Source of the DNA: an uncultured Methanolobus sp.
GTDB lineage: Archaea; Halobacteriota; Methanosarcinia; Methanosarcinales; Methanosarcinaceae
Direction of reading: 5' to 3'
Length of the DNA stretch: 64,000 bases
Assembly (NCBI GenBank): GCA_963675495.1
Contig: OY776215.1
Coordinates: 2,752,001-2,816,000 of the forward strand
Program-made: the position numbers and the translations under genes
Notes under the pieces: model-generated
Database searches by the model: none
What the model saw: only the letters and a program-made list of their open reading frames with translations
Told to the model about the DNA's origin: nothing
Part shown: positions 2,010 through 30,545 of the stretch, piece by piece
Position numbering within the stretch: the stretch's first letter is position 1
Layout: each line of letters opens with the position of its first letter

Positions 2010-3547
2010 TATCACTGGATACTCACTTACCCATCATACTGATAGCCACGCCAATACTGATGGCGTCGCTCATGGTGTTTTTGAGGAAACAATCAGGGAT
2101 CCAGAAGATTCTGAGCGTTTCAGTTTCATTTTTAATGTTCATAGTGAGCATTCTCCTGCTCCTGCAGGTCTGGTCTGGTGGCATACAGGCATATGAAGTA
2201 GGAGAATGGGGAAAATACGGTATCATACTGGTAGCAGACCTGCTCAGCTCCGGTATGGTTGTACTGACATCTTTCGTATCATTCCTGGCACTCGTTTACT
2301 CACTTGATTATATTGAGAAAAAGTCACTAAGTGCATCATATTATCCGCTTTTCAGTTTGCTGGTGGCAGGACTTAATGGTTCTTTCCTTACAGGGGACAT
2401 ATTCAATCTCTTCGTATTCTTTGAGATACTCCTGCTTTCTTCATGCGGACTTGTAATCGCCAATGAGAAAGGTGGAGTTACAAAAAGCTCGGACAAGATG
2501 GAAGCAACCTTCAAGTATCTTGTACTTAACATGGTCAGTTCCATTGTAATGCTCATAGCAGTCGCTTCCCTTTATGCGACAACGGGCACACTGAACATGG
2601 CAGATATCTCTGTGAAGCTCAGTGCAATGAGCGCGGCCGGAACACTTCCTTGGCATGTTTTTGCCATAGCATTGATGTTTGTGGTGGTATTTGGTAACAA
2701 GGCTGCAATATTTCCACTTCACTACTGGCTTCCTGATGTTCACCCCACAGCACCATCACCCATAAGCGCAATGCTTAGTGGTGTATTGATAAAGGTCGGA
2801 GCCTACGGAATGCTCAGGGTCTTTTTCCTTATATTCATCGATACGCTCTACATTTTCAAACCTGTGATGATCTATCTTGCACTTGCTACCATTGTAGTTG
2901 GAGCCATATCAGCCGTTGCACAGACAGATGTCAAGCGCCTGCTGGCATATTCCAGTGTCAGTCAGATAGGTTATGTATTCCTTGGAATTGGTTTTGGTAG
3001 TGTCTACGGGATTACAGCAGCTCTTGTGTATCTTGTGAACCATGCAATTGCAAAGTCAATGTTGTTCCTTACTTCAGGGGGCATAATTCATCATGCAGGC
3101 ACAAGGGACATGAGAAAAATGGGAGGCATGGTCGATAGTGCCCCACTCATGTCAATGATGTTCCTTATAGGTGCAATGTCCATTGCAGGACTTCCTCCAA
3201 TGGGTGGATTCATAGCTAAATTCCAATTGTTTGATGCAGGAATCAGTGAGGGATATTACTTTGAAATTGCAATAGCACTTATATTTGCAGTACTCACTCT
3301 TTTTTACATGTTCAGAGCAATGCTGCTTATGTTCTGGGGTGAAAAGAGGGATGTTAGTGAATATGGGGAATATTCCACACATGGTGCATCTCCATTGATC
3401 GCTCTGCCGATAATCGTTCTTGCACTTGGGGTTGTTGTCTTCGGACTGTACGCAGAACCGCTGATAGCCTTTGCAAGCGCAACAGCAAATCAGATACTTG
3501 ATCCGCAGGCCTATATTGATGCTGTAATGACGAGGGTGGTAAGATGA
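2006..3547 (+). CDS. mrpD: Mrp antiporter subunit D
   Basis: GDIFNLFVFFE, PLHYWLPDVH and KRLLAYSSVSQIGY motifs of the NuoM/N-like antiporter subunit. Confidence 0.94.
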   Translation: MISLDTHLPIILIATPILMASLMVFLRKQSGIQKILSVSVSFLMFIVSILLLLQVWSGGIQAYEVGEWGKYGIILVADLLSSGMVVLTSFVSFLALVYSLDYIEKKSLSASYYPLFSLLVAGLNGSFLTGDIFNLFVFFEILLLSSCGLVIANEKGGVTKSSDKMEATFKYLVLNMVSSIVMLIAVASLYATTGTLNMADISVKLSAMSAAGTLPWHVFAIALMFVVVFGNKAAIFPLHYWLPDVHPTAPSPISAMLSGVLIKVGAYGMLRVFFLIFIDTLYIFKPVMIYLALATIVVGAISAVAQTDVKRLLAYSSVSQIGYVFLGIGFGSVYGITAALVYLVNHAIAKSMLFLTSGGIIHHAGTRDMRKMGGMVDSAPLMSMMFLIGAMSIAGLPPMGGFIAKFQLFDAGISEGYYFEIAIALIFAVLTLFYMFRAMLLMFWGEKRDVSEYGEYSTHGASPLIALPIIVLALGVVVFGLYAEPLIAFASATANQILDPQAYIDAVMTRVVR

Positions 3548-7124: not shown

Positions 7125-10100
7125 ATGGAGTTAAAAAGCCGGCACAAGCTATTAGTTGTCGCGATTGCCATCCTAATAAGTATGGCAATGGTACAGTCCG
7201 CTTTTGCTGCAGATGTGAATACGATCAGGTTGTATGGTGAAGATAATGTTTCAACACTAAACTTCCCATATACGACGGCTGAAGGACCATTTGATCCACT
7301 AAGTTATGAGGCACCTATTAAGGACTTCATGACATTCAATCCAGCAATTTTGGATGACGGTATTGTGGTCAACCATGCTAACGCTTATGAGAAAGTGTTT
7401 GCAAGGCAATATTTTGTTCCAAACTATAAGGAACCAACAGGCCGTGTGTGGCTTGATGAAGGTGACTTCGTCAGGTACTCAAACGACATTGTTACTGAAT
7501 ACACCTATATGTTTGTTAGCAAAGTAGATCAGCTGCCAATTGAAGGAACCGCAATGGATCCCCAAAACAGTGCATACTGGACCAAGTTCTGGTTCCCAAT
7601 AGCCGATAACGACGATTCACAGATCGGCCTTGACGGTATGGATGCCAATGGAGATGGCATAGATGACATGGTGCATCTGGAAGCAGTCGGGGACTTTGAT
7701 GTTCTGGACAACAATGGCGATGGATATAAGGATGTAAAGATCGCAACGGATTCATTCCAGCTAAGCACATCTGATGCAAGCATGAATACTCTACAGTTCC
7801 TTGACCACATGGTGGTAGTCAAGGATGTAGCAGTCAGTGGCCTTAACGGAAATCCACTTATTACCATAGTTATGGATGTATACTACACAGGTAATGATGA
7901 TCCTGAACTCATACACCAGAACTATCAGGCAAGCATCGTACCAGGTGACTACTTGGTTGCAGGCAGACATGTTGTTGCAGACAGCATGGAACCGGACTTT
8001 GATTATTCATGGTTCTTGAGAGCAGATGCTGCAAGTACTAACTATGTTTACGTAACTGTAGGACGTAGACTCTACCAGGGAGAGACTTTCTTTGTAGATG
8101 GTGCAGAATATGATGTAGCCGCTATCTTTGGAAGTGTCGATGAAGGTGACTGGAGATATGATAATACTGTCAAGTACATAACTATCAGAAACCCAATACC
8201 AGAAGATTATGATGTTGACCTTGGAGATCTTACGGTAGTTAAGGAAAGTGTAAGGGCAAATGAGCTTATTCCAATGCTTCCGCCTTTCAACAAGGACTAC
8301 ACAATGATCGATGATATTGATCTTCCATATCAGTACACAAAACTTGGTCCAGAGGACTACAAGCACACATACACTTGCTATGATGCAGATTTCACATATC
8401 CATTAGTAGGACGCATGCTTGATGCAGAAGCTATGGAGATCTACTTCGTAGATGAAGGATATGAAGAGAGATTTGATACGAACCTGCTGGAAATACTCGA
8501 TGAACATGAAAGATATGAAGATGAAACATATGAAGACTGGCAGTGGCTTGACATTCTGACACTTCCACATCAATACAAGGAATTTGTCTATCCGGAACGT
8601 CCGGATGTTGATGGAAGCTATGCAGACTTCATTTTCACAAGTTCCTTCGAGGCACCATACACAAGGTTCTGTCAGAACCCAAGCTACACCTGCTGGTCAA
8701 TGGAAGGTCTTGACAAGAGACTGATGTTCGAATATGATCAGGAACGTGGTATCGAAGATATCTATGTGAATGAGATCGATGCACAGACCAATGGACTGAG
8801 GCTATATGGTGGATCTGCAGATGTTCCTGACCTGATGGATGCTACATTCCCATATTCAGCAGACAATCCAGAGGGACCATTTGACCCATTGAACGATGAA
8901 GCTCCGCAGATGGACTTCGTAACAATGAACCCTTCACTTCTTACAGGTACCGTTGTCAACAACGCCAATGCCTATGAGAAGGTATTCATCAGACAGTGGT
9001 TCGATCCTGACTACCATGAGCCTGCAGGTGATGTCTGGCTTGATGAGTCATATGATTACGACAGAGTATCTGATGACGTAGTTACTGAGTACACTTACAT
9101 GCTCCTCAGCAAGGATGAATATGGGTACTACATGCCAATTGAAGGTACTGCACTTGACCCACAGGATGCAGATTTCATACTCGATCATGTCGCAACCGGT
9201 GCACACTGGACTAAGTTCTGGTTCCCTGTCGCTGACAATGATGATGCCCAGATAGGTATCGATGGTATGGATGTCAATGGTGATGGCCTTGATGATATGA
9301 CCGTTCTCAAATCAGTTGCTGACTTTAATGATGATGGTCGTGCAGATATAGCAATTTCATCAGAATCATTCCAACTCCAGACCGGAGTACAGAATGCAAA
9401 TGGCAATTCCGACATACAATTCCTTGATCACAGGGTAGTTGTAAAGGACGTTGCTCTTGCCGGTGCAAACTCAAACCCATTGATCTCACTGACAATGGAT
9501 ATCTACTACACTGGTAATGATGAGGATGAGCTTATCGAGCAGAACTATCAGGCAAGCATAGTTCCAGGAGGAGCGGTCTGCGCAGGAAGACACTTCGCAA
9601 TTGTCAACCATCCAGGAATCTTTGATTACCCATGGTTCATTACTGCTGATGCAGCAAGTGATAATTACGTCTACGTAACAGTCGGACGTATACTGCACAC
9701 CGGAGAGACCTTCTTCGTAGATGGAGCAGAATACGATGTTGCTATGATATATGGCAGTACCTTTGAAGATGGAGATGATGGTGGCGTAAACTCCACAGTT
9801 GTCAACACTTTCAAGTACATAACCATCAGAAACCCAATACCTGAAGAGAATGAGGTTGATCTTGGAGACCTGACAATAGTCAAGGAACCAGTACAGCCAA
9901 TGGAAACTATTCCACTGCTTCCACCATTCAATGGTGACTACAGGTTCATTGATGACATAGATGTCGATCTATATGATGCATACGAGACATGTTATTACGA
10001 TGACGATACACCTATCGGAAGTCGTATTTCACCGGTGCATCCAGCACTTGATATCTACTACACAACTGCACCTGAGGTAGAGGACAGATTCCACAGCAAC

Positions 10101-10613
10101 ATCTTTGAGCTACTCTGTGAGGGTACTGTTCTTGCAGCAGCAGATGAGATCGATCAGTATCCTGTTTGGGAATCCTGGAAGTGGCTACACATCCGCACAC
10201 TCCCTGACGAGTACAAGGAATTTGTCTATCCGGATGTATGGGACTACTATGGACTTGGTGACTATCTGGTTACCAGCTCATTCACTGCTCCAAACTCGGA
10301 ACTTTGCTATGAGGACTTCAAGGAGGAATACCGCAGTTCAGATGTCCAGAGACTCATGTTCTACCATGACCCTGCAAACGGTGTTGGTCTGTACATGAAC
10401 CAGGCAGATGGTGTAGTGTTCACAGGTGCTGATGGAACAAAGGGCGATTTCAACGATGATGGAGTCATTGATCTGAAGGACCTCTCAGCCTTTGCACTGG
10501 CCTATAATTCAAGTTCAAGCGATGCAAACTATGATGCATGTGCTGACTTCAATGACGATGGACTGGTTGACCTGAAAGATCTCTCTGCCTTTGCACTTGT
10601 GTACAACAAGTGA
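7125..10613 (+). CDS. Large secreted acidic cell-surface protein with an internal tandem duplication and a C-terminal dockerin domain
   Basis: RBS AGGAGG and a signal peptide (…QSAFA). Two ~520-aa homologous halves. The C-terminus GDFNDDGVIDLKDLSAF…ADFNDDGLVDLKDLSAF is the duplicated Ca-loop/helix pattern of a dockerin. Confidence 0.85.
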   Translation: MELKSRHKLLVVAIAILISMAMVQSAFAADVNTIRLYGEDNVSTLNFPYTTAEGPFDPLSYEAPIKDFMTFNPAILDDGIVVNHANAYEKVFARQYFVPNYKEPTGRVWLDEGDFVRYSNDIVTEYTYMFVSKVDQLPIEGTAMDPQNSAYWTKFWFPIADNDDSQIGLDGMDANGDGIDDMVHLEAVGDFDVLDNNGDGYKDVKIATDSFQLSTSDASMNTLQFLDHMVVVKDVAVSGLNGNPLITIVMDVYYTGNDDPELIHQNYQASIVPGDYLVAGRHVVADSMEPDFDYSWFLRADAASTNYVYVTVGRRLYQGETFFVDGAEYDVAAIFGSVDEGDWRYDNTVKYITIRNPIPEDYDVDLGDLTVVKESVRANELIPMLPPFNKDYTMIDDIDLPYQYTKLGPEDYKHTYTCYDADFTYPLVGRMLDAEAMEIYFVDEGYEERFDTNLLEILDEHERYEDETYEDWQWLDILTLPHQYKEFVYPERPDVDGSYADFIFTSSFEAPYTRFCQNPSYTCWSMEGLDKRLMFEYDQERGIEDIYVNEIDAQTNGLRLYGGSADVPDLMDATFPYSADNPEGPFDPLNDEAPQMDFVTMNPSLLTGTVVNNANAYEKVFIRQWFDPDYHEPAGDVWLDESYDYDRVSDDVVTEYTYMLLSKDEYGYYMPIEGTALDPQDADFILDHVATGAHWTKFWFPVADNDDAQIGIDGMDVNGDGLDDMTVLKSVADFNDDGRADIAISSESFQLQTGVQNANGNSDIQFLDHRVVVKDVALAGANSNPLISLTMDIYYTGNDEDELIEQNYQASIVPGGAVCAGRHFAIVNHPGIFDYPWFITADAASDNYVYVTVGRILHTGETFFVDGAEYDVAMIYGSTFEDGDDGGVNSTVVNTFKYITIRNPIPEENEVDLGDLTIVKEPVQPMETIPLLPPFNGDYRFIDDIDVDLYDAYETCYYDDDTPIGSRISPVHPALDIYYTTAPEVEDRFHSNIFELLCEGTVLAAADEIDQYPVWESWKWLHIRTLPDEYKEFVYPDVWDYYGLGDYLVTSSFTAPNSELCYEDFKEEYRSSDVQRLMFYHDPANGVGLYMNQADGVVFTGADGTKGDFNDDGVIDLKDLSAFALAYNSSSSDANYDACADFNDDGLVDLKDLSAFALVYNK

Positions 10614-10638
10614 AAAGAGGCGCTTAGAAGGTGAAAAC

Positions 10639-12468
10639 ATGAATGAAAATAAACTGAAGGGATTTGCGGAGAAAACCGCATTCCTTTTAATATTTAGTGC
10701 CTGCATCCTGGTGGGAATGGGAGCGGCAGCTGCAACGGCTACCGTAGCAGTTGATGATTCATTTGCACAGGCTCTATCTCCTGGGGATACATTCGACGTG
10801 ATTGTGACCCTTGATTCTGATGGAGTCATCGTGTCAACATTGGGTGTTGAACTCAACTACGATCCAGCTGCACTTCAGGTTAACGATATAACCCAGAACG
10901 GTTTATTCGGTGCCACTGTAAATGCGGATTATTTGTTGGATGCAAACAATGGTGACGATGGCGCAGGAACCATATACTATGCAGTTTCAGGAACAACTGC
11001 AGAAGCAAAGAATGGTGATTTTATCACTGTTGAGTTCGAGGTTCTGCCAGCCATTCCTGATGGGGCTTATCCTCTGGAACTTGGCATGGTGGAATTGCTC
11101 CTCGGCGCAACTGATGTCCCTGCAGATGCCATTGATGGTGTCGCTACAGTCGGAACTGTTGTTGTAGTTAATGGAAATCCTGAAGTATCAGTATTTCCAG
11201 CAACTATCTATGCAAACCCTGGTGACATATTTAACGCAAAAGTTCAACTGGATTCTGACGGTGAAGATGTTTCCACAATGGAAGTAGAACTCACTTACGA
11301 TCCAACAGTTCTTGATGTACTTGGAATTACCCAGAATGGGCTTTTCGGTGCTGTTGAGAACGTGGACTATGTAGTAGTTCCAGGTAATGGTGATGATGGA
11401 GCAGGTACGATAATGTACGGACTTGCTGGCACTGTTGCAGAACCAAAAGATGGAGATTTCATTACTATTGAATTCGAAGTCATAGGAACTGCAGCTGATG
11501 GAAGCTATCCATTGGACCTTATGGATGTAGAACTGCTGAATGGAGCAGATGAGGTCGATGGTGTCGTCGTCAATGACGGGTCTGTTGAAGTCACAAATGT
11601 TCCAAACATTGTTCCGATACCGGATATAACGTCTCACACAGATGGGGAAACAGTTTCACATGTAGAGATTGTTGAAGCTGTTGATAGTTCCACTGAAAAT
11701 GATGTCATGAGCACTACCTTTGAGATCTTTGCAGATCTTGATGCTGATTGCCTGGCTGATGATGTTGGTGAGGAATGGGCCGAGATCGGAACTGATGTTG
11801 ATGGCACAGATGGATGGAAAGCTGTACTTGATACAACAACCGTGCCTGATGGAAAGTATCTCATAAAGGCTACTATGGATGATGGAAGGGACATTGCATT
11901 TGACATTATATGTGTCAATGTGTACAACCCAGAAGGAATCCTGCTGCAGCCTGGATGGAACTTCATATCAGTGCCAGAAACACTGGAGCAGCCACTTGTT
12001 GCCGATGTACTTCGTGACTTTACCATTGCGGAGATCGACTCAGTATTCTACGATGATCTCTCAACCGGTACAAATGTAATGGACATTCCAACAGAATTTG
12101 AACCTCTGAAGGGATACTGGGTACACAGCAGCATGACTGAAGACGTTGTAATTGACGAAAGCTATCTACAGAAGTCAACTACAATGCCAGCAACACCAGC
12201 ATCACTCCAACTCTATCCGGGCTGGAATGCTATTGGACACACAGCACTTGATGAACAGCCAGCAGAGGTTGCCTTGCTGGCAATTGACGGTTGTTATGTC
12301 AAGATACAGGGACCATGGGTTCCTTCTGCCAATGAATATGCATACATTGGCCTTAACACAGAAGATGGATCTGAACTTACCGGTAATCTTGTAACAACCG
12401 GTGATTTCAAACTTGATTCATATGAAGGATTCTATGTCTTTGTTCAGGAGGAGTGCCTGCTAGGTTAA
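10639..12468 (+). CDS. Secreted protein with two cohesin-like domains, an Ig-like domain and C-terminal PGWN repeats
   Basis: Start moved to ATG 10639 (RBS AAGGTGA). Signal peptide; two repeats PGDxFxxxxxLD…ELxYDP…GDFITxEFEV; LQPGWNFISVP and LYPGWNAIG repeats. Confidence 0.8.
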   Translation: MNENKLKGFAEKTAFLLIFSACILVGMGAAAATATVAVDDSFAQALSPGDTFDVIVTLDSDGVIVSTLGVELNYDPAALQVNDITQNGLFGATVNADYLLDANNGDDGAGTIYYAVSGTTAEAKNGDFITVEFEVLPAIPDGAYPLELGMVELLLGATDVPADAIDGVATVGTVVVVNGNPEVSVFPATIYANPGDIFNAKVQLDSDGEDVSTMEVELTYDPTVLDVLGITQNGLFGAVENVDYVVVPGNGDDGAGTIMYGLAGTVAEPKDGDFITIEFEVIGTAADGSYPLDLMDVELLNGADEVDGVVVNDGSVEVTNVPNIVPIPDITSHTDGETVSHVEIVEAVDSSTENDVMSTTFEIFADLDADCLADDVGEEWAEIGTDVDGTDGWKAVLDTTTVPDGKYLIKATMDDGRDIAFDIICVNVYNPEGILLQPGWNFISVPETLEQPLVADVLRDFTIAEIDSVFYDDLSTGTNVMDIPTEFEPLKGYWVHSSMTEDVVIDESYLQKSTTMPATPASLQLYPGWNAIGHTALDEQPAEVALLAIDGCYVKIQGPWVPSANEYAYIGLNTEDGSELTGNLVTTGDFKLDSYEGFYVFVQEECLLG

Positions 12469-20485: not shown

Positions 20486-21799
20486 TTATTTTTTAATTCC
20501 AGTGTAACTGGATGATCCAAATCCCAGATCAATGATCTTATTTCTGGAAATCATTATTGAAATGACGTTTTTAGCTCCGTTGATGCTCAATCCTGTCCTT
20601 TCAGCTAGATCTTCAGCATCAAATGAATCCTTTTGCTCGATAAGGGATGAAATTTCATTTTCAAGAGTTACGTAGGTGTCTAAATTGTGCCATACTTTAA
20701 GCTGGTCTGCATGTTCCACGTTTTTATTAAATAGTACTTCGCCTGTTTCAAGATCATAGAGATAGAGAATCAGTCGAGGGTGAATATAATTTTGTGACCA
20801 GACTTTAATGTCATTTTTCCACTCTGAATTCAAAAGACAAATACTTTTATGTTGACCTTTTGGAACTACGTCTGCTTCTCTTTGCACGAACTGCATCATA
20901 GTTCTTACATCCTCAAATGGATGCCAGCAAGTCTCAAACGTGAGGAGGGGTTTCAAAACAGTATCCATTATGCTTCCGGAAATGAATTTCTCGGATTTGT
21001 TTATTTTCCATTTTCTATCTCCGATGTAGTCCCCATTTAGTGATATTTCGGGCTGGCATGCAGAATATTTGTGTTCCAGTACGTTCATGTAATTATAAAG
21101 TCTCGAAAGTACTTCCGTATCGATGCTTTCCTCTGAAGTTCTCTCGATTTGACCTGAAACAAATCTTTCCGAACTCATTGAAGGTGCCAATATATTTTTT
21201 GAGAGTTTTGAAGATCCAGATGATTTTCCTATGGTATCTACCAGGGATGGTGCTGAAGTCTCATCATCAGTTTCAATTGGAATCTGTTTCTTGCCGGAAA
21301 TCAAACGTTCTGAGCTGTTTAATTCCATTTGTTTTAGTTTGAATTCTTTAAGAAGATTCTTGTCTACAATAATGCGCTGCTCAATATCTTTTTTGAAGTT
21401 GTCAAGAAGATCTTCCAACAGAAAAATGTCAATCGTTCCTGTTGAACTGACCAGTGAAGAGAAAATTTCTTTCAATTTGGCAGAGTCCTCCAACAAGTTG
21501 TCTTCTTTCCTGTAAAAATCCTCCAGTGTACCCTCTCTGCCAGAAAACCCATCAAGCTCTTTGTTTTTTATATCTGAAAGAAGCTGGGATACATTTGTCC
21601 TGATATTGCGAAGCTGAAAATTGATCTCTGTAGCTTTTTGTGCATAAGTTCGCTGAATAAGTTTTTCAACAGAGCTATAAACATCGTTCAGGTTCTTGAT
21701 TACAATTTGCCGATTATTCTGTTCCAGAGCTTCGGGGTCTTTTAACACTTCCATCTTAATCTTTTCCTGATTATTTAGACCATAGTCAACTTTGTTCAC
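20486..21799 (-). CDS. Hypothetical protein: helical N-terminus, Ser-rich linker, alpha/beta domain, C-terminal winged-helix-like domain
   Basis: 437-aa ORF. The C-terminus FDAEDLAERTGLSINGAKNVISIMISRNKI fits an HTH/wH pattern. Last gene of the minus-strand ESCRT-like run. Confidence 0.75.
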   Translation of the reverse strand: MNKVDYGLNNQEKIKMEVLKDPEALEQNNRQIVIKNLNDVYSSVEKLIQRTYAQKATEINFQLRNIRTNVSQLLSDIKNKELDGFSGREGTLEDFYRKEDNLLEDSAKLKEIFSSLVSSTGTIDIFLLEDLLDNFKKDIEQRIIVDKNLLKEFKLKQMELNSSERLISGKKQIPIETDDETSAPSLVDTIGKSSGSSKLSKNILAPSMSSERFVSGQIERTSEESIDTEVLSRLYNYMNVLEHKYSACQPEISLNGDYIGDRKWKINKSEKFISGSIMDTVLKPLLTFETCWHPFEDVRTMMQFVQREADVVPKGQHKSICLLNSEWKNDIKVWSQNYIHPRLILYLYDLETGEVLFNKNVEHADQLKVWHNLDTYVTLENEISSLIEQKDSFDAEDLAERTGLSINGAKNVISIMISRNKIIDLGFGSSSYTGIKK

Positions 21800-21865: not shown

Positions 21866-23131
21866 TCATACTACCTCGTGTGTTCCAAGGTCAATGGGCT
21901 CTTGCTGGCAAAGAATCTCATTCACCTCAAAGGAGAAATTGAGATTGCCAAGATCTATCTTTCCAGCACTAATCGGTTTTATTGCAAGGGATGTATATGC
22001 CGATGCATGTGGCTGTATTTCAGGTATGCAAGTGCCAGTATTATGACATTCTATAAAGGAAGAGAAGCAGCTATTGAAGCAAACATTGCTGACAATCTCA
22101 TCAGATATGTTCTCTACATAAATACTCAATGTGTTACCAACTTCACAGTATAGTGTTTCGGGGACATTGACCTTTACTTTTACATCAGGGATTCCTATGT
22201 GTTGCTCTCCAAAAGCCACCGGTCCTATCTTGCAATTGTTGCCACCCAAGGTAAATAGAATTTCAAAATATCCAATGTCCAATGTACCTGGAATTGTTGG
22301 CATGACCTGATATGTAACACTATAAGATGAACCAGGAGTCATATTTTTTGTATCTGAAAACGCCGTATCATATTTTAGTCCTTCTGGGAAAGAAGACATT
22401 ATATGCAGATTCGTCAGGTCAACATTTAATGTATTTTTCATTTTAACAGAGATTGTAGAACTATGCCCTAATCGAAGCTCTTCCAGAATCTCAATGTTCA
22501 ATCCAAAGTATGAGTGAACAATGTCAATATTTCCGAAAAATATTGGAGATTTTTGGTGTTTGTTATTGTTAATCTCAAGGTAAAGGTCACAATAGCCTGT
22601 GGATACGTTTCCTGCTAGTAGAGGTATAAAAGAGAAAGACGACGGTACTGAAGACATTGGTTCAAGGTCACCAAGATTCAAAATAGGTTTATCACATCGA
22701 ATAGTTCCCGGGAATACTGCTCTTATCCATATATTCTCTATCCTTTTTTCAGTGGGGTTATTTACCCTGAAGAAAAGCATATTATTAAATCCCAGCTCAG
22801 CAGGTTCTGTAAATTTATATTCCAGGTTTACAGAATCTACAACCTGTAATTCTTTAACTCTTCTTCTTTCAATGCCGACCTTCTTTTCGTATGTCCAGAA
22901 AATGTAGATTATGGTATAAAGAAGAAAAATGTATATCGGTGCACTGGCAACATATACCAGGTCAAGTTTATTGTTAATAGATAGTATGAGACTAACAATA
23001 AGGTATGTGGAAAGCACGATCCATAAGAACGCATATGCCTGGAAAAAAAGTCCAGTCCTGCCCCCTGCTTTGTTCTGAAGCGCATGGGAGAGTGATTTAA
23101 ATATATCCTCCAGAGGTCCAAACTTCATCAA
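21866..23131 (-). CDS. Membrane protein with two N-terminal TMs and three tandem Ig-like beta-sandwich repeats
   Basis: Two hydrophobic helices, then three ~110-aa repeats (xVxN…NI/L…F…P…G…IG…F.I) ending in xPIxxG. Confidence 0.75.
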   Translation of the reverse strand: MMKFGPLEDIFKSLSHALQNKAGGRTGLFFQAYAFLWIVLSTYLIVSLILSINNKLDLVYVASAPIYIFLLYTIIYIFWTYEKKVGIERRRVKELQVVDSVNLEYKFTEPAELGFNNMLFFRVNNPTEKRIENIWIRAVFPGTIRCDKPILNLGDLEPMSSVPSSFSFIPLLAGNVSTGYCDLYLEINNNKHQKSPIFFGNIDIVHSYFGLNIEILEELRLGHSSTISVKMKNTLNVDLTNLHIMSSFPEGLKYDTAFSDTKNMTPGSSYSVTYQVMPTIPGTLDIGYFEILFTLGGNNCKIGPVAFGEQHIGIPDVKVKVNVPETLYCEVGNTLSIYVENISDEIVSNVCFNSCFSSFIECHNTGTCIPEIQPHASAYTSLAIKPISAGKIDLGNLNFSFEVNEILCQQEPIDLGTHEVV

Positions 23132-23193: not shown

Positions 23194-24936
23194 TTAATTG
23201 TCTTGTATGGTCTTTGTGCCACATTCACTGCAAAAGTTTGCACCTTGAACTATTTTTGAACCGCATGAAGGACAATAATTAGCCATAAACTCTGATTTTT
23301 GTATCACACTATCCTCCACAACAACATCATCCGTACAATTTCCATTAAGGCCACATGAGTTTAACAGGTTGCTGCGCTGGATTATGGAATCCTTTATGGT
23401 TACATTTACAACCTGCTTAACATTGCTTTTTCCATTCGAATTAGATTTCATCTCCCTGCAAAGTTCGCGACCGAATTCTGCAAGCATGCCTACAAGTGAC
23501 TCTGCGGTTCGTGTTGCACCAAAAAGTTCGATACTCCCAGTCTCTTCAGAAATTGTGATCTTCAGGATAATATCATGATCATTAACCTTTGTCTTGCCAT
23601 AATACCAGGTTTCATAATGATTCCCATCTTTGTTTCTCAAAGTCCTAACATGCCTCACATCATGACGCTGAACCATCTCGCGACATATGTTCATAAGGGT
23701 TGCAGTGTCAAAGTCTGATCTCATTTGGTATACTTTACTATCCCTGAAAGGTAGCGCAGACAAAAGTTCTTTAAGAATTCCTATATTGATATCAGAACCT
23801 GTTTTCATGATCGGGCATGTCACTGCAATTCTTTTTGGTTTCATCTCTGTGTTCAGTAGTTTCCCTTTCGCATCCTTGTAGAATATTCTGCATTTTATCT
23901 CAGAGGACTTCGAACAGATGAGAGGATCAAAATAAATCATAACTGATTTTGAATTGTTGCCTTCTATGCTTCCCAGTAGTAATCTGTCATTTTTTACTGA
24001 GTACATTGGTTCAAATCTGTCTATCCTGAAAAGGTGTTCATCAAAATCAAAATCCAATGCCACATCATTGACCACAAGTGTAGAGATATTGTTGACAGCC
24101 ATTTTTAAGCGGACAAAACCCTGGTAGAACTCGGTTTCCCTGAATACCTGCAGTTGAGTTGTAAATTCTGGAGCATCGCTATTCGCTGCAGGTATATTCT
24201 TTGATACTTCACAAATTCCTATATTAAGAGGTTCCTTATTGTAATAATCTCCATTGATAAGGTATGAAATATAAATTTTACCGAGATCTATATTGTCTGC
24301 GAGCCTTGGATACAGAAAAATAGCAGTATAGCCGGAAGAACCTGCATTTACAACGTCAATACTTACAACGTTTTCTTCACAGCGAACGAGGCGTGAGCAC
24401 TCCGCCCTTATTGAGATGTTGGTTATTGGTATGTCTGAAGGGTTTATTATGGTTATCTTTACTGGGTTTTCTGTTTCTGCTTTCAAAGGTTGTTGTATGT
24501 CTACAACAACATTGACTGCTTCACTTATCCGTTTTTCATGATTGAGTTTATTGGCCCTTTTGATTTCATTTTCAGCATTAGTTTCTTTTATGGTTTTTCG
24601 GATTCTGGAACCTGATCTAAGTGCAACAAGAGGGCAGACAAAAATTGCGATTAAAGGAGCGGGTTCGAATGAAGAGAACACCAAAGCACCGAATATTGCT
24701 ATTATGGCTCCTGCAAAAACTGCATGGGAGAGAATGTTATCTTCATTTTTTCTATTCGTAGAATTTCCGTTAATGGCTTTTGGAATAACATATGCAGTGG
24801 TAGCTGCAAGTACAACCCCTATCATTCCGCCTGCTATAACATGTGGGAATCCTCCTCCGAGGCCAAAGAAGAGGCCTATGTAAATACCTATACGCAGGTT
24901 GTCACGGGGGTCTAAATATGACCATTTAAAAGTCAT
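23194..24936 (-). CDS. Multi-TM protein with Ig-like domains, an adaptin-appendage-like region and a C-terminal zinc ribbon
   Basis: About four N-terminal TMs, beta-sandwich repeats, an alpha/beta platform-like segment, TIKDSIIQRSN and CPSCG…FCSECG. Confidence 0.75.
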   Translation of the reverse strand: MTFKWSYLDPRDNLRIGIYIGLFFGLGGGFPHVIAGGMIGVVLAATTAYVIPKAINGNSTNRKNEDNILSHAVFAGAIIAIFGALVFSSFEPAPLIAIFVCPLVALRSGSRIRKTIKETNAENEIKRANKLNHEKRISEAVNVVVDIQQPLKAETENPVKITIINPSDIPITNISIRAECSRLVRCEENVVSIDVVNAGSSGYTAIFLYPRLADNIDLGKIYISYLINGDYYNKEPLNIGICEVSKNIPAANSDAPEFTTQLQVFRETEFYQGFVRLKMAVNNISTLVVNDVALDFDFDEHLFRIDRFEPMYSVKNDRLLLGSIEGNNSKSVMIYFDPLICSKSSEIKCRIFYKDAKGKLLNTEMKPKRIAVTCPIMKTGSDINIGILKELLSALPFRDSKVYQMRSDFDTATLMNICREMVQRHDVRHVRTLRNKDGNHYETWYYGKTKVNDHDIILKITISEETGSIELFGATRTAESLVGMLAEFGRELCREMKSNSNGKSNVKQVVNVTIKDSIIQRSNLLNSCGLNGNCTDDVVVEDSVIQKSEFMANYCPSCGSKIVQGANFCSECGTKTIQDN

Positions 24937-24940
24937 AGAA

Positions 24941-26104
24941 TCACTTTTTCAGCAGTTCGGAAAAAACATCTTCTTCACCGGTCTTCTGGATTGAAGTTCT
25001 GGCTTCTATATACCAGCTGACGATGGAAGGCTTTCTTTTCTGTAATACGGTTTCGAAGTCCCGTAGTTTTATCTTTCTTGGTTCGCCGCCTCTTAAAGCC
25101 TCTCCAAGGGGGATGTCTGCAGCTTCCTTACATATGGCTGCCAGATCTGCACCGGAATAAGAATTTGTGATCGTAGCCAGGTACTTTATATCGAGATCAT
25201 CATCAATGGGCCGCTTTTTCAAATGTATATTTAGAATCGCTATCCTTGCATCCATATCTGGTTCAGGAACAAAGACAAGTTTGCTGAAACGCCCCGGGCG
25301 TCTCAGGGCAGGATCGATGGCCCATGGTTCATTTGTGGCTGCAAGCACCAGAAGATCATCGGAATCAGTATCCACGCCATCCATTTGTGCTAACAGTTCG
25401 TTTACAACTCTCTTTGCATAGTCTTCACTTTCGCTGCGTCTTCCGGCAATGGAATCAATTTCATCAAAAAAGATAATAGACCTGTTTCCCTGACGGGCAA
25501 TGTCAAAGACCTGTTTGACATTCTTTTCCGAAGCACCCACCCATTTACTTACAATACTGCTGGTCTTGACGCTGATGAACTCCGCCCCGCATTCTTTTGC
25601 AGCCGCTTTTGCCATCATGGTCTTGCCACAACCCGGGGGACCATAGAGTAAAATTCCCTCTCCGGCCTTTTGACCGTACATATTGTAGAGTTCCTTATGT
25701 GTGAAAGGGTAGATTATAGCTTTCCGTATTTCCTCTTTTACCTGTTCAAGCCCGCCGATGTCTGGAAAACCAATATCAGGCATTTCTTTGAGAAACACAT
25801 CATCTTTTGAAAGAGAAGACTCATCGTTGCTTCCGGAATTCTTCCTGGTCTGGTTATTCCCGTCAGAAGACAAAACAGCGGAACCTTTTTTTAGTGCCTG
25901 GGCTCTGGCAAACAGATGTTCTGCAAGGTCGCGCTGGGTATTGCGGTCAATAGAATCGCCAGGTATGGTGGAAGCATCATTATAGAGCTTGGCAGCTTTG
26001 AGGTATAATTCACGTGCCCTTTCAGATTCTCCTCTGTCTTCCAGGTCTTTTGCAGCTTTTGCATATCCTCGGGCCTGGGCAGCAAATGTTATGGCTGAGT
26101 TCAA
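24941..26104 (-). CDS. Vps4/CdvC-like AAA+ ATPase with an N-terminal MIT-like domain
   Basis: Three-helix N-terminus (AKAAKDLEDRGESERARELYLKAAKLY) and a single AAA module: GPPGCGKT, pore loop SKWVGASEK, FFDEID, ATNEPWAIDPALRRPGRF. Directly downstream of the Snf7-like gene. Confidence 0.82.
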   Translation of the reverse strand: MNSAITFAAQARGYAKAAKDLEDRGESERARELYLKAAKLYNDASTIPGDSIDRNTQRDLAEHLFARAQALKKGSAVLSSDGNNQTRKNSGSNDESSLSKDDVFLKEMPDIGFPDIGGLEQVKEEIRKAIIYPFTHKELYNMYGQKAGEGILLYGPPGCGKTMMAKAAAKECGAEFISVKTSSIVSKWVGASEKNVKQVFDIARQGNRSIIFFDEIDSIAGRRSESEDYAKRVVNELLAQMDGVDTDSDDLLVLAATNEPWAIDPALRRPGRFSKLVFVPEPDMDARIAILNIHLKKRPIDDDLDIKYLATITNSYSGADLAAICKEAADIPLGEALRGGEPRKIKLRDFETVLQKRKPSIVSWYIEARTSIQKTGEEDVFSELLKK

Positions 26105-26155
26105 ATACGCACCCCTGATACGAACTTAATACAGTTCAGAAAATAAGATACAGGA

Positions 26156-26725
26156 TTATTCAGTATCTGCCATCTCTGATTCTATCTTCCTGGAAAGTTC
26201 ATCCTTTTCAGGTTCTTCACTTGATAGTTCTGCAAGTAGCTCCGATCTGAGTGAATCCTGCATTTCAGAGAGTTCATTCCCACCACTCATTGCTGCATCC
26301 ATGGAGGATGTCATCATATTTGTTGCCGTGTTCACCTTTTCCATAGAGGTTCTTATGTTTGTTACAGCACCTTCGAGTTTATTGGTATCAAAGCCAAGCT
26401 GTTTCTGCCATTTTCCCAGATCTTCGCCAATTTCAACAACTTCCTTAAGACCGGTTTGCATCTCAATTACATCGGTCATGGATTGTGCCATCTCTACCAT
26501 ACTACTAATGGTGTTGACCTGTCCTTCAACAAGGGAATGTCTTCTCGATGCTACCCTGAACTCTCTGTCGTTTCCATTTGCAAGAGCTTCTTTTGCCTGT
26601 TCCCTGGATTTCTGTTGCTTTTTTATGAGTTCCTTTTCACGGCTTGTGAGTCTTTGCTCTGAAATGCTAAGTTTTGTTTTCAGCTCTTCGGGCGATACCT
26701 TCTTAAATGGATTCTTTAATGCCAT
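26156..26725 (-). CDS. ESCRT-III (Snf7/CdvB-like) helical protein
   Basis: 189 aa from ATG 26725. Amphipathic MALKNPFKK start, basic helical hairpin (…REQAKEALANGNDREFRVASRR…), acidic C-half and a terminal MIM1-like helix EKDELSRKIESEM. Confidence 0.75.
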   Translation of the reverse strand: MALKNPFKKVSPEELKTKLSISEQRLTSREKELIKKQQKSREQAKEALANGNDREFRVASRRHSLVEGQVNTISSMVEMAQSMTDVIEMQTGLKEVVEIGEDLGKWQKQLGFDTNKLEGAVTNIRTSMEKVNTATNMMTSSMDAAMSGGNELSEMQDSLRSELLAELSSEEPEKDELSRKIESEMADTE

Positions 26726-26880
26726 TACAATTCCTCTTCCATTCTTTTCTGCTTTGCATATCGTATACACAGTTTCATAGCTTCAGATTTATTGATAGCT
26801 ATTCCCATTTCTACTAATGTATCCAGATATAGTTTACTGTCTTCTGAGATTCTTGCACTCACCGGGTAAGAATTAGCCAT
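26725..26880 (-). CDS. Ribbon-helix-helix (CopG/Arc/MetJ) transcription regulator, 51 aa, absent from the ORF track
   Basis: Translated by hand: MANSYPVSARISEDSKLYLDTLVEMGIAINKSEAMKLCIRYAKQKRMEEEL*. Its stop overlaps the Snf7-like ATG (TAATG). Confidence 0.8.
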   Translation of the reverse strand: MANSYPVSARISEDSKLYLDTLVEMGIAINKSEAMKLCIRYAKQKRMEEEL

Positions 26881-27003: not shown

Positions 27004-28296
27004 ATGGCATTCAAATGGAAAAGAGAATCAGATGATATTGCCAGGGTGGTTCCTAAAAAAGAGGTTGGGGGTTTTTTCAGTAAAGCAGTGATCCTCTCTC
27101 CGAATGAAAAGGCAGCCATGGTAAAGAATGGAGTTGTTGATAAAATAGTGGATAGCGGCAAATTGCATGTCGGCGGTCTTTTAAAACCAGGTAATGTTGG
27201 AAAAGATGTGGATGTTGCCCTGATGGATACGTCTCCCAAGGATCTGCAATGGACGCAATCCGAACTATGGACCAGGGATAATCAAAAAGTAGCCTGTAGT
27301 GGACTGCTTCGATTCAGGATACAGGAACCAAAACGTTTCTTCCAGATGCTCTACGCCTATACAACACCTGATAAAAAGGGAGTCAGGGCACTTTCCATAC
27401 AGGATGTATATTCTCGTCTTGAAAGTGAAGTGCTCACCCTTGTCCTTGAACCTGAGGTCAGGCAGGAAGACATAGAAAATCTCTATGGTAACAGGGACCT
27501 TCGCCTTAATATAGAGAATGAACTTGAAATGAGGGTCAGGTCCACATTATCTATGTGGGGGTTGGAAATGCTGAAATATACAGCCCAGTGGGAGCTTGGT
27601 TCTTATGGAAAGGTTATGCAGGCGACCAATGATTTCCAGACCAAGGAAGAACTTGCTGAGCTTGATACTCTTGCAACAGAAGGGTATTCTGAACGCAGGG
27701 GAAGGGAAGAAGTTGCAGAAATGCGCGCCGGTCATGCAGCAATTTCAACAGAAAAGGATTTTCAGCGTAATCAAAAACTGGGGGATGTTAAATCTGAGCT
27801 TGAGATCGAAAGGTTGCAACATGAAGCAGACATGCGGGAAGCAAGGGAAGCAATCGGCCTTAAAGAAGAATTAAAACTTGCAAAGGCACGGGGCATGCGA
27901 GTGGAGCTTGAAGTCGAACAGGACATGAAAGACCGTGATCATGGTCGTGATATGGAATACCTGAAACATATTACAGAAGCTGGCGGAACTGATGTTGCAA
28001 AGACTGTGAGTGAGGGTCGCGAATACGGACGTATGTCGCCGGAGCAACTGGAAGCCCTTGCAAAGGTCAAACAGAGTGAAGCTGTTGCAAAGGAAGATAA
28101 GGTTAATTTTATGATGGAAGTTGAGGACAGGGAACGCGCCGATTCATATCGAAGGCAGGAGCTTGATGCTTCTATGATGGGTGCAGCAAAGGGCAAGACT
28201 TCACCCACCGTGAGAAAATGTCCGGGCTGCGGTTCAACAATTCCTTTAGAATCAAGTTTTTGTAGTCAGTGTGGGAAGAAACTTACTGATATTTGA
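27004..28296 (+). CDS. SPFH (band 7/flotillin-like) domain protein with coiled coil and C-terminal zinc ribbon
   Basis: LSPNEKAAMVKNG…TRDNQKVACSGLLRFRI…WGLEM fits the SPFH pattern. Long E/R/A-rich coiled coil; CPGCG…FCSQCG. Confidence 0.82.
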   Translation: MAFKWKRESDDIARVVPKKEVGGFFSKAVILSPNEKAAMVKNGVVDKIVDSGKLHVGGLLKPGNVGKDVDVALMDTSPKDLQWTQSELWTRDNQKVACSGLLRFRIQEPKRFFQMLYAYTTPDKKGVRALSIQDVYSRLESEVLTLVLEPEVRQEDIENLYGNRDLRLNIENELEMRVRSTLSMWGLEMLKYTAQWELGSYGKVMQATNDFQTKEELAELDTLATEGYSERRGREEVAEMRAGHAAISTEKDFQRNQKLGDVKSELEIERLQHEADMREAREAIGLKEELKLAKARGMRVELEVEQDMKDRDHGRDMEYLKHITEAGGTDVAKTVSEGREYGRMSPEQLEALAKVKQSEAVAKEDKVNFMMEVEDRERADSYRRQELDASMMGAAKGKTSPTVRKCPGCGSTIPLESSFCSQCGKKLTDI

Positions 28297-28401: not shown

Positions 28402-29919
28402 TTGGTACAAAAGTCTTCCAAATCTCTGATCGTAATGCTTCTTGCATGCAGCATCTTTTGTCTGACTTCCGGGTTCGCATTTGCGAATGACTATGAAATT
28501 ACGCTTTCTGAAGGTGAGGTAGTAGAGATTCAGGATGGTTACTACCTGACTGTAATGGATATTGATACATATGATGAAACGGTAAGATTTGTAGTATCAT
28601 ATTATGACACCATGGTATGGGACAATTATTACCCACGAGGAGAGTATTTTTCTTATCAGGACGATTATTTGGTTCTCCAATTCAAAATTGATGATGTTTA
28701 TTATGATTCTTTTTATGGTTACGATTACTTAGTTCTCTCAGATATCTACATCTATCCTGATTATACTGTTACTTACGATGAAAATGAACATGACTGGCAA
28801 CCTGAGTACTCAACGGACTATTCAGACCACTCCGATACTTCTGCGGAAGATGAGCTATATGATATGCTTGGAATCCTTGCCATAGTTATTGTGGCAGTTT
28901 TTCTGATGCGTAAAATATCAAAGAAAAGCAAAGATAAAAAAGCTCTCAAAAAAGATAAAAAGGAGGCTACCTTTTCTCCTTCATCTGGAAAAGAAAATAC
29001 TTCAAAAACAGCTGGCAATGTCGAAGCTGGAATTGTGAAAACAGCAGCTTCAAAACGTGATCCTGTACTAGTCAAATCAGCTATCCAGTACAAAGGCGCA
29101 AATATTCTTTACAAAATAAAAGTTGAAAACGCGTCTGAAGAGCCCATGGGCGATATAACCATAAGTCTCTTTGTTCCCGAGGTCTTCCATATCAAGGATA
29201 ATCAGAAGACTATGTCTATGCTGCAGTCTGGAGAAGGAAAAACTGTAACTTTCCTGATCAGGCCAACTGGTGAGTGTGGAAATTGTATATTAGCAGGAAA
29301 CATTCGTTATTACGATTACAGCCAGAAAAAGCATGTTCAGTTCGATCTTAGTAATAAAATGGTGGATATAGTCTGTCCTGTACTTAAGATAAAAGAAGTC
29401 GATGAGGCCGAGTGGAGGCTGAAAGTCAGTTCTATGATAATTGCAGAAGAGGATACTAAGGATGTTGAAATTCCGGCTGAGAATCTTTTTGATATGGCCA
29501 CACGCATACTGAAAGATATGAACATGTTTATGATCGCACCTGAGGTAACATCCACACAGCAACTGTTCACCGGTGTGGCAAGGTTCTATGCACATGGTGT
29601 GGCTGGCCTGAAGTATGCTGCATATGTTGAAGTGGTGGGTAAACGTAAATCGAGGCTGATTGTAAAAGCCTGGGCTGAAAAGGAAGAAGCACTTACAGGT
29701 TTCTATCATAAGATCCTTGAAGAGATCGAAAAGAGAACTGATATCAAACTCTTTGTTGATGATTCCGTAACCCAGTACAATATAAGCAACACCACTATAC
29801 AGGATAGTGTGATCCAGCGCTCGAATATTGGCAGCGGTAAAAGAAAGTGTCCTCAATGCGGAAGGGAAGTTGAAGGTAGCGAAAAATTCTGTATCAATTG
29901 TGGCCGGAAGCTTGACTGA
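28402..29919 (+). CDS. Single-pass membrane protein: S-layer-like ectodomain, cytoplasmic adaptin-appendage-like region and zinc ribbon
   Basis: Signal peptide, Tyr/Asp-rich ectodomain (ITLSEGEVVEIQDGYYLTVMDID), TM plus lysine cluster. The cytoplasmic part is homologous to 23194..24936 and ends in CPQCG…FCINCG. Confidence 0.78.
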   Translation: MVQKSSKSLIVMLLACSIFCLTSGFAFANDYEITLSEGEVVEIQDGYYLTVMDIDTYDETVRFVVSYYDTMVWDNYYPRGEYFSYQDDYLVLQFKIDDVYYDSFYGYDYLVLSDIYIYPDYTVTYDENEHDWQPEYSTDYSDHSDTSAEDELYDMLGILAIVIVAVFLMRKISKKSKDKKALKKDKKEATFSPSSGKENTSKTAGNVEAGIVKTAASKRDPVLVKSAIQYKGANILYKIKVENASEEPMGDITISLFVPEVFHIKDNQKTMSMLQSGEGKTVTFLIRPTGECGNCILAGNIRYYDYSQKKHVQFDLSNKMVDIVCPVLKIKEVDEAEWRLKVSSMIIAEEDTKDVEIPAENLFDMATRILKDMNMFMIAPEVTSTQQLFTGVARFYAHGVAGLKYAAYVEVVGKRKSRLIVKAWAEKEEALTGFYHKILEEIEKRTDIKLFVDDSVTQYNISNTTIQDSVIQRSNIGSGKRKCPQCGREVEGSEKFCINCGRKLD

Positions 29920-30104
29920 GGTAGTTAAAGGTAGTGTTTCCTGTTTATATATGGTGGGAATCCTGTATCTCTGTCATTCATTTTTATTTTTGTAATTTTA
30001 ACAGTCAACCATTAACTCTAAATAATATAATACGGAAATAACATTCCTTGCATGCTGATTTAAAGAAAGCATATAATTTTTCGAATCACAATAGGAGGTA
30101 TCGG

Positions 30105-30545
30105 ATGAGACTGGAATTTATGGAGAAAAAATCAAGATTTGATGAATTTGAACAGGAATATCGTCACTCAAAGGCATACCTTCGCAGAGCAAGACAGTTC
30201 CAGAAAGAAGGGCAGAATCACAGTGTTGTATTCAACGTGTCCTCACTTGCGCTTGAACGTTATCTAGTTGCTTTGTGCTACTTGTATGACACGGAACCCT
30301 TTAATCACAATTACGCCAGTCTGATGGATACTGTGGAAAAGATTGTTGAAGTTCCTGTAGAATTGAACAAAGAGATTAGGTCTCTGGATGAGATATTCGG
30401 TATTTGTTCTATTGACGATTATTATCATGGTGAACCTGAGCTATCCGATACTGATAGGATTCTGTCAATGTGCGATTCAGTTGAGGGATTGTTCGATCAG
30501 GAAAAGATATCCTCAATTAGAGATTCTTTAGAGGAATGTGAATGA
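30105..30545 (+). CDS. HEPN-like domain protein
   Basis: ATG 30105 after AGGAGG. The helical LALERYLVALC…PFNHNYASL segment resembles the HEPN ExxLKA…HxL pattern. Confidence 0.6.
   Translation: MRLEFMEKKSRFDEFEQEYRHSKAYLRRARQFQKEGQNHSVVFNVSSLALERYLVALCYLYDTEPFNHNYASLMDTVEKIVEVPVELNKEIRSLDEIFGICSIDDYYHGEPELSDTDRILSMCDSVEGLFDQEKISSIRDSLEECE

Follow-up and report, generated by a model that had tools for sequence, protein, structure and literature searches.

How might a euryarchaeal ESCRT-III-like protein engage the ATPase encoded next to it, and through which part of its sequence? The question is raised by a stretch of 64,000 nucleotides (the window) within the 2.87-Mb single-contig genome of a Methanolobus species, where the gene for a 189-amino-acid (aa) ESCRT-III-like protein is followed by that for a 387-aa ATPase bearing an MIT-like domain at its N-terminus. 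A first-pass annotation, made from the letters of the window, had taken the two for a cognate pair, in which the tail of the first protein, close to the eukaryotic MIT-interacting motif of type 1 (MIM1), matches the second's N-terminal domain. We found its observations largely right and its interpretation half right. On our reading, to which we give a probability of about 0.6, the locus is the Methanolobus copy of a euryarchaeal ESCRT-like membrane-remodelling module, in which the tail would dock the ATPase and whose role would be other than cell division.

The gene pair, the tail and the MIT domain

The two genes and the parts of their products discussed below are as follows (residue numbers are those of the respective protein).

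26156..26725, minus strand: ESCRT-III-like (Snf7-like) protein, 189 aa; open reading frame (ORF) with ATG at 26725
26222..26260, minus strand: alpha5-like helix QDSLRSELLAELS, residues 156-168; from alignments
26159..26209, minus strand: C-terminal tail EKDELSRKIESEMADTE, residues 173-189, candidate MIT-interacting element; from alignments and motif counts
24941..26104, minus strand: MIT-AAA ATPase, 387 aa, of Vps4/CdvC-like architecture with a Cdc48-D2-like cassette; ORF, Pfam, NCBIfam
25874..26095, minus strand: MIT-like three-helix domain of the ATPase, residues 4-77; AlphaFold2, Foldseek, profile
25523..25549, minus strand: pore loop 1 of the ATPase, SKWVGASEK, residues 186-194; alignment of 24 ATPases
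25286..25303, minus strand: RRPGRF of the ATPase, residues 268-273, arginine-finger region of the classic-clade type; invariant in 24 ATPases

The two genes are adjacent and co-directional in the ORF list, the ATPase ORF beginning 51 bases downstream of the ESCRT-III-like ORF. A longer start for the latter, GTG at 26770, is possible; however, most relatives share its length (mostly 185-191 aa) and its start methionine, and the 189-aa form is thus the likely product. In a 301-genome sample of the class, the ESCRT-III-like gene was present in 46 genomes, always as a single copy, and the MIT-ATPase (profile matches at E 4e-29 or better) in 42, all among these 46. None of the 301 genomes had the MIT-ATPase without the ESCRT-III-like gene. 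Within the genus, 17 of 31 other species carry the ESCRT-III-like gene; for a second large genus in the family the count is 0 of 40. We also compared 38 related loci from species-representative genomes, to which all counts of gene context below refer. The ATPase gene lies within the locus in 33 of them, in most immediately downstream of the ESCRT-III-like gene, and three of the five loci without a nearby ATPase belong to genomes that carry it elsewhere. Adjacency and co-occurrence thus make the pair cognate in the genomic sense, although, as described below, its tail is no canonical MIM1.

The N-terminus of the ATPase is MIT-like, as had been proposed. AlphaFold2 modelled its first 90 residues (23-row alignment) with a mean predicted local distance difference test score (pLDDT) of 83 as three helices (residues 4-24, 27-46 and 54-77), and the best Foldseek matches of this model were MIT domains. 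The first-ranked match was 2v6y, the MIT domain of the S. solfataricus Vps4-like protein (template-modelling (TM) score 0.71/0.84, root-mean-square deviation (rmsd) 2.3 Å, 73 columns, E 0.039); further matches were 2w2u (rank 4) and the MIT domains of Vps4, MITD1, katanin, spastin and calpain-7, interspersed with helical segments from some hydrolases. A profile of the domain searched against the PDB had the calpain-7 MIT domain 8uc6 on top (E 0.0043), and Pfam MIT matched over model positions 3-66 of 66 at E 0.013. Precomputed Pfam annotation records MIT in none of 64 relatives. Besides the 42 genomes with the ATPase, eighteen more, all of one genus, gave just a weaker match to the MIT profile, on a frame of ~255 aa. 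In genus g17 of the class sample, 19 of 29 genomes have frames of ~255 aa with an MIT-like N-terminal match (E 1e-6 to 8e-13; for example, positions 11785-12012 of contig C90 in genome G169), which are too short for an AAA cassette. When 151 genomes from the phylum to which locus L049 belongs were scanned with Pfam MIT, two partial matches turned up, on frames of 615-675 aa, and a scan of 301 genomes of the phylum with the CdvC model at E 1e-75, a threshold that was too strict, gave one irrelevant match.

The ESCRT-III-like protein's residues 145-189 read AMSGGNELSEMQDSLRSELLAELSSEEPEKDELSRKIESEMADTE, and the protein ends, as first noted, in EKDELSRKIESEMADTE. Two elements of this region are conserved. 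In the helix QDSLRSELLAEL (residues 156-168), L159, E162, L163 and E166 are invariant in 28 sequences, and the pattern persists in 48 distant representatives. Closer to the end, after a variable acidic linker, stands the motif L177-S-R-K180-I181, a layout kept across 49 sequences. Of 49 family representatives, 23 have the pattern h-x-x-[KR]-h (h, hydrophobic) within their final 20 residues, as do 23 of 28 closer relatives. Shuffling the tails 1000 times gave a mean of 3.9 and a maximum of 12, compared with the 23 of 49 observed, so the motif is beyond chance. The sole proline of the tail is P172.

The MIM1 consensus is (D/E)xxLxxRLxxL(K/R). L177, K180 (+3) and I181 (+4) of the tail fit it, but E184 stands at position +7, and a hydrophobic residue follows only at +8 (M185). 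The tail thus departs from the consensus in the missing third hydrophobic position, a leucine; some relatives even stop six residues past the first leucine (for example, LEKKLKG). By sequence, the motif is a candidate for a helical MIM, though not a canonical MIM1. What may be novel here is a MIM candidate in a euryarchaeal ESCRT-III family, namely a two-position helical motif conserved at the very C-terminus. The idea that loss of the basic +3 residue tracks absence of the ATPase was dropped, as locus L044 has LGDQI with the ATPase present in its genome, and L047 has LDEKI with none found.

We modelled the complex of MIT residues 1-95 with the ESCRT-III-like protein's last 42 residues (148-189), both with alignments. 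The scores were 0.32, 0.32 and 0.34, compared with 0.00 for three controls, which rates as weak support; the runs shared at least 88% of contacts, with a partner pLDDT of at least 57. Of 80 solved complexes, 58 reached the mark used, as did 2 of 110 mismatched pairs; scores of 0.60 or less were given to just 7 of the 80 solved complexes, yet to both of the passing mismatches. The segment held both the helix 156-168 and the terminal motif, so the prediction cannot separate the two. The modelling envisaged at first pass, of the MIT domain with the C-terminal segment, thus gave a score above its controls and no interface. On this model, it is plausible that the tail region binds the MIT domain.

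Assignment of the two proteins and rival explanations

The ATPase matches Pfam AAA (E 5.4e-45) and AAA_lid_3 (E 2e-10). Of the NCBIfam models, CDC48 scored 266.6 bits (residues 105-360), PAN 249.5 bits and CdvC 240.5 bits, the last with residues 2-367 collinear with model positions 2-359 of 370. The best solved relative of the AAA cassette is the Cdc48 D2 of 6chs (223.8 bits), and the 60 best solved matches listed are all Cdc48/p97, VAT, AFG2, NVL or Rix7. Pfam Vps4_C is absent among the best 25 of 33 families (down to E 0.03). In an alignment of 24 ATPases, eight positions of the pore loop are invariant and A191 is kept in at least 90%. The loop had been called Vps4-type at first pass. The motif SKWVGASEK is indeed present, but it is common to VAT/Cdc48 D2 and therefore not diagnostic of Vps4: the Cdc48-like VAT D2 (5vc7) carries SKWVGESEK, and a 51-aa stretch around the loop matched Cdc48 at E 1.7e-18, compared with 6.8e-11 for Vps4 (6bmf, rank 60).

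Eukaryotic Vps4 has RRF at the arginine-finger site. The ATPase carries RRPGRF there, as noted at first pass, and the aligned Cdc48 cassettes of 6chs have RRfGRF in D1 and cRPGRl in D2. The proposal that the enzyme falls in a clade separate from eukaryotic Vps4 is supported. The 24 ATPases keep Walker A, Walker B, SKWVGxSEK and RRPGRF with little or no variation, and from these motifs the enzyme is predicted to be catalytically active. A second pair was seen at positions 943-3284 (minus strand) of locus L057 in the related genome G292, where a gene for a 199-aa helical protein without a Pfam match is followed by one for a 578-aa protein that joins a helical N-domain to an AAA cassette with RRPGRF and a diadenylate-cyclase (DAC) domain (E 2.1e-17). 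Since RRPGRF recurs in this MIT-AAA gene, the form may be common in euryarchaeal MIT-ATPases.

We place the 189-aa protein in the ESCRT-III superfamily, as a divergent member, on convergent weak signals and gene context, with no single strong signal among them. Pfam Snf7 matched it with 17.3 bits (E 0.0039) over model positions 4-158 of 171. When 28 relatives were scanned singly, 23 matched Snf7 at E 0.1 or better, with a best E of 3.1e-5 and over near the full model length; the runner-up, Flagellin_C, was matched by 9 of the 28. AlphaFold2 (28-row alignment) gave a model with mean pLDDT 77 and helices at residues 12-49, 53-110, 115-146 and 152-188. In a Foldseek search of the PDB with this model nothing reached E 0.001, and the first five rows (E 0.029-0.19) were S. 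islandicus CdvB (9s9k, E 0.029) and the Asgard ESCRT-IIIB filament 9ftl. A wide structural search independent of Foldseek returned Snf7 8wb7 (Z 9.7, rmsd 2.5 Å, 102 aligned), IST1/CHMP1B (Z 9.4) and 9ftl (Z 8.9), values that do not discriminate, because long helical proteins may share a mere common arrangement. Sequence and profile searches of the PDB gave nothing significant (MakA-type toxins, E 0.032; IST1, E 0.22-0.94).

The protein has the charge asymmetry reported at first pass, a basic N-terminal half (net +5, residues 1-94) and an acidic C-terminal half (net -13, residues 95-189). The N-terminal consensus of the family, from the 28-sequence alignment, is M-x-L-F-K-K-K-V-S-P, which may resemble the short membrane motifs at the N-termini of eukaryotic ESCRT-III proteins. 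A family profile run against 1.84 billion representatives found just 79 clusters at E 0.001, indicating that the family is small and stands apart, without merging by sequence into canonical Snf7. Among its look-alike clusters in a protein atlas, one has Snf7 on 13% of its members and one is named SNF7; relatives are labelled 'Snf7 family protein' in public sources, where the names of the closest homologues point to Methanolobus (Methanosarcinaceae). The nearest atlas clusters by language-model features (scores 0.96) include bacterial ones, from Bacillota, Planctomycetota and Chloroflexota, and the family or its look-alikes may thus reach beyond archaea. The single ESCRT-III-like paralogue counted in the window proved to be the sole member of its family in the whole 2.87-Mb genome. 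A bacterial-type PspA is encoded at 2366871-2367563 of the contig, outside the window and 410 kb away (93.5 bits, above its cut-off); the genome thus holds two ESCRT-III-superfamily proteins of different lineages.

A number of results weigh against our reading, and we set them out here with the explanations that they favour. Those on the tail come first. The pattern [DE]xxLxx[RK]hxxh occurs in the last 30 residues of none of the 49 representatives, and the shorter Lxx[RK]hxxh in one of the 49 and in none of the 28 closer relatives. The likeness to MIM1 claimed at first pass therefore stands for L177, K180 and I181 and fails at the third hydrophobic position. AlphaFold2 predicted residues 171-189 as helical at low confidence (pLDDT 54-60). 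The complex prediction did not return an interface or contacts, which leaves MIM1 indistinguishable from other MIT-MIM modes. Four of the 46 genomes with the ESCRT-III-like gene show no MIT-ATPase (in these 91-96% complete assemblies, no best AAA match begins before query residue 92), and, where sequences were read, they retain the tail motif (LDEKIKEEM in L047).

It is possible, then, that the MIT domain binds elsewhere, either to the helix QDSLRSELLAEL or in a helical type 3, 4 or 7 mode in another groove, and not to the terminal L-x-x-K-I as a MIM1 (type 1); the terminal motif would then serve, for example, docking to the SPFH or zinc-ribbon neighbours described below. The helix is the better conserved element, with four invariant residues as opposed to none in the tail. 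Besides the persistence of the tail motif in genomes without a detected MIT-ATPase, the SPFH gene is linked to the locus in 37 of 38 cases, compared with 33 for the ATPase. There are at least seven MIT-MIM binding modes (PMC9477494), and membrane localisation of Bacillus subtilis PspA requires the SPFH protein YdjI (cited in PMC10936438). However, conservation of alpha5 in ESCRT-III is expected from its packing against the hairpin and needs no MIT domain (PMC7619361), the genomes lacking the ATPase are incomplete assemblies, and the modelled segment contained both elements. We consider binding at another site unlikely, and the tail remains the most likely handle for the MIT domain.

On the side of the ATPase, the Pfam MIT score of 16.1 bits lies under the curated cut-off of 30, the CdvC score is far below the equivalog cut-off of 650, and the AAA cassette is by sequence closer to Cdc48 D2 than to Vps4. 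The enzyme might thus be a Cdc48-type unfoldase with an MIT-like N-domain, whose substrates are other proteins of the locus, such as the zinc-ribbon membrane proteins. The match of the cassette to Cdc48 D2, RRPGRF and the VAT-like pore loop would suit such an enzyme; the C-terminal zinc ribbon shared by four neighbours could be a common handle, and the related Halo_adaptin ATPase has a VAT N-domain in place of MIT (PMC10936438). Yet in most loci the ATPase gene directly follows the ESCRT-III-like gene, and it never occurs without the latter in the 301 genomes, the model of its N-domain fits the Vps4/CdvC MIT best, and the complex score is weakly positive, all of which makes an unfoldase for other proteins of the locus very unlikely.

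As to the subunit, its Snf7 score is under the curated cut-off of 27.3 bits, and BAR and bMERB domains tie with ESCRT-III in the wide structural search (SNX1 Z 11.0, bMERB 10.4). Although all sequence matches are under curated cut-offs and the PDB profile search, besides this tie, ranks MakA-type toxins above IST1, it is extremely improbable that the protein is an unrelated coiled-coil or BAR-like one with an ESCRT-III likeness stemming from helical composition, because Snf7 is the sole family to recur, near its whole length, among the relatives (23 of 28), the size, charge asymmetry, N-terminal motif and tail layout suit ESCRT-III, the gene is linked to that of an MIT-AAA ATPase, and atlas clusters and database labels of relatives name Snf7. 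A last point against our reading is that no ProX or GOLD family was found in Pfam scans of the listed window ORFs of at least 120 aa, unlike in the loci of the published Meth_adaptin clade as the text of PMC10936438 describes them.

Neighbouring genes and a possible mechanism

The genes around the pair were compared across the 38 related loci, and window ORFs of at least 120 aa were scanned against Pfam, with a threshold (E 0.1, 0.001 or 1e-5) that differed between scans. The neighbours are as follows.

26725..26880, minus strand: ribbon-helix-helix (RHH)-like protein, 51 aa; NCBIfam AbmR, C-terminal part, E 1.6e-6; Pfam RelB, E 0.061 (weak)
27004..28296, plus strand: SPFH/Band-7 protein, 430 aa, combining a charged coiled-coil region with a zinc ribbon at the C-terminus; Band_7, E 5.5e-7; Zn_Ribbon_1, E 2.2e-5
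28402..29919, plus strand: membrane protein with a zinc ribbon, 505 aa, conserved over its C-terminal two-thirds and variable in the N-terminal part; Zn_Ribbon_1, E 1.5e-6
23194..24936, minus strand: membrane protein with a C-terminal zinc ribbon, 580 aa, a variable component; Zn_Ribbon_1, E 3.5e-7
21866..23131, minus strand: membrane protein with immunoglobulin (Ig)-like repeats, 421 aa, a variable component; Transglut_C, E 7.7e-8; TRAPPC13_C, E 7.5e-6; BatD, E 0.006
20486..21799, minus strand: protein of no known family, 437 aa, last gene of the co-directional cluster; from conservation

The RHH-like gene is kept in 37 of the 38 loci at 69-96% identity. Its stop codon and the ATG of the ESCRT-III-like gene overlap in the window (TAATG), from which we read translational coupling of the two genes. 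Its position is that at which other archaeal ESCRT loci reportedly carry an upstream winged-helix gene. The SPFH-zinc-ribbon gene, divergent from the ESCRT-III-like gene, is likewise present in 37 loci, and the gene for the 505-aa protein in 32. Relatives of the latter protein have N-domains of PEGA, PQQ, CARDB or carboxypeptidase-regulatory-like type, and one has Alpha_adaptinC2 (PF02883); a constant C-terminal two-thirds joined to many N-domains is the pattern expected of a swappable outward-facing part. The 580-aa protein has a near full-length match in only a part of the loci, and the 421-aa Ig-like protein is likewise found in a part of them. The gene for the 437-aa protein is present in 32 loci, and follows directly after the ATPase gene where both variable genes are absent. 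Its product has no Pfam family at E 0.001, and its best protein-atlas score, 0.87, came without a family. By eye, its N-terminal third looks coiled-coil-like and its last ~40 residues helix-turn-helix or winged-helix-like.

Three of the neighbours (23194-24936, 27004-28296 and 28402-29919) differ in architecture and end in the same type of zinc ribbon (CPxCG...FCxxCG), which may serve the system as a common docking module. Adjoining the locus, at 30048-30545 (plus strand), is a gene for a HEPN-domain protein (E 8.4e-5), found in the same place in 7 of the 38 loci. The genes flanking the locus are housekeeping ones (S6e, IF-2, PdxS/T, gyrase). Elsewhere in the window, at 7125-12468 (plus strand), a 1162-aa ORF without a Pfam family at E 1e-5 precedes a gene for a 625-aa protein with two cohesin domains.

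Taken as an ESCRT-like module, the locus could work as follows. Its basic N-terminal hairpin and hydrophobic-basic N-terminal motif would bring the ESCRT-III-like subunit to the cytoplasmic side of the membrane, and there it would polymerise alone, as a homopolymer. The acidic C-terminal part would present the alpha5-like helix, the variable acidic linker and the terminal amphipathic L-x-x-K-I, and the MIT domain would dock onto this tail. The ATPase hexamer would then thread subunits through its KWVG pore, turning the polymer over. Possible partners are the SPFH protein as a scaffold or cage, the Ig/adaptin-like zinc-ribbon membrane proteins, the 437-aa protein and the RHH protein; of these, the SPFH cage and the Ig/zinc-ribbon membrane proteins may set the site or the cargo. 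The genome has two FtsZ genes, which, together with the patchy distribution of the family, points to an accessory role and makes division unlikely; vesicle formation, protein sorting or membrane repair is the likely function.

A further idea goes beyond this reading, and we hold it rather doubtful: that helical MIT-MIM recognition was not an invention of Asgard archaea and eukaryotes, and that a euryarchaeal one-subunit ESCRT recruits a Cdc48-like 'proto-Vps4' via a minimal L-x-x-K-I. If this were true, the canonical MIM1 would be an elaboration of a two-position helical motif, and cultivable methanogens would harbour a natural minimal one-subunit ESCRT-III/Vps4 machine. A helical mode, if it holds, would also matter for the question of whether MIM1-type recognition is older than the Asgard-eukaryote lineage (PMC7240154). 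Whichever the case, a conserved C-terminal motif, a single-subunit system and a cultured methanogen genus offer a simple handle on three questions: whether the tail binds the MIT domain, whether one subunit suffices for a polymer, and what the SPFH and zinc-ribbon partners contribute.

Comparison with known systems

Euryarchaeal CdvB/CdvC homologues have been known since Makarova 2010, with their function given as unknown (cited in PMC5840170 and PMC8281802), and the cellular role of euryarchaeal ESCRT-III/Vps4 homologues is described as unestablished (PMC5840170, PMC8970359). As in Sulfolobus CdvB-CdvC, the ESCRT-III homologue here adjoins an MIT-AAA ATPase; the MIT model superposes on 2w2u (TM 0.71/0.84), and the ATPase is collinear with the CdvC model. 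In contrast to the Sulfolobus pair, which uses MIM2-MIT binding (2w2u), the tail here has no proline-rich MIM2. The Methanolobus system also has no winged helix and no CdvA, FtsZ is present in the genome, and the ATPase stays below the CdvC equivalog cut-off.

With the MIM1 of eukaryotic and Asgard Vps2/CHMP1-Vps4 pairs, the tail shares a C-terminal, probably helical, amphipathic motif after an acidic linker and a basic residue preceding the second hydrophobic position. It differs in the absent third hydrophobic position (0 of 49) and in that some relatives end six residues past the first leucine. As far as its account of domains goes, the survey in PMC8970359 reports no interaction domains or motifs in euryarchaeal Cdv proteins and MIM1 in Asgard only; similarly, PMC7240154, in its treatment of CdvB, describes it as lacking MIM1 and takes MIM1 as common to Asgard archaea and eukaryotes. 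With Cdc48/VAT D2, the ATPase shares its best AAA match, the SKWVGxSEK pore loop and an RPGRF-type arginine-finger region; unlike Cdc48/VAT, it has one cassette, is 387 aa long and carries MIT instead of a double-psi barrel N-domain.

The PspA-YdjGHI system of B. subtilis, in which YdjG carries zinc ribbons, is similar in that an ESCRT-III-superfamily protein is encoded together with SPFH and zinc-ribbon proteins. The Bacillus operon, however, has no AAA ATPase; the protein here is Snf7-like, and the PspA of this genome is encoded separately.

The Meth_adaptin clade was defined in a Vps4 tree by Makarova et al. (2024, mBio, PMC10936438), whose text draws a parallel between Meth_adaptin and PspA-YdjI. 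A full-text literature search for the term 'Meth_adaptin' returned this paper only, and neither the cluster look-up of three relatives nor the homologue list of the 505-aa protein gave accessions of relatives tying our locus to it. According to its text, Meth_adaptin loci encode an ESCRT-III protein, two adaptin-appendage-like proteins (GOLD in one, a zinc ribbon plus an additional N-terminal domain in the other), an SPFH-coiled-coil-zinc-ribbon protein and ProX. Our locus has in common with them the MIT-bearing Vps4-like ATPase just downstream of the ESCRT-III gene and an SPFH protein with a coiled coil and a zinc ribbon (the 430-aa neighbour). Where they have the appendage pair, we see Ig-like matches on the 421-aa protein and a zinc ribbon on the 505-aa protein, with swapped N-domains in its relatives. 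The text glosses the clade as Methanobacteriales, whereas the family described here occurs in Methanosarcinaceae, relatives of Methanoperedens and one Thermoplasmata assembly. What that text says of MIMs includes no mention of one in the Meth_adaptin clade, though the supplements may bear on this. Since the locus, but for ProX and GOLD, matches the Meth_adaptin component list as given in the text, the gene pair is not new, and the locus as it stands is a further instance of a published system.

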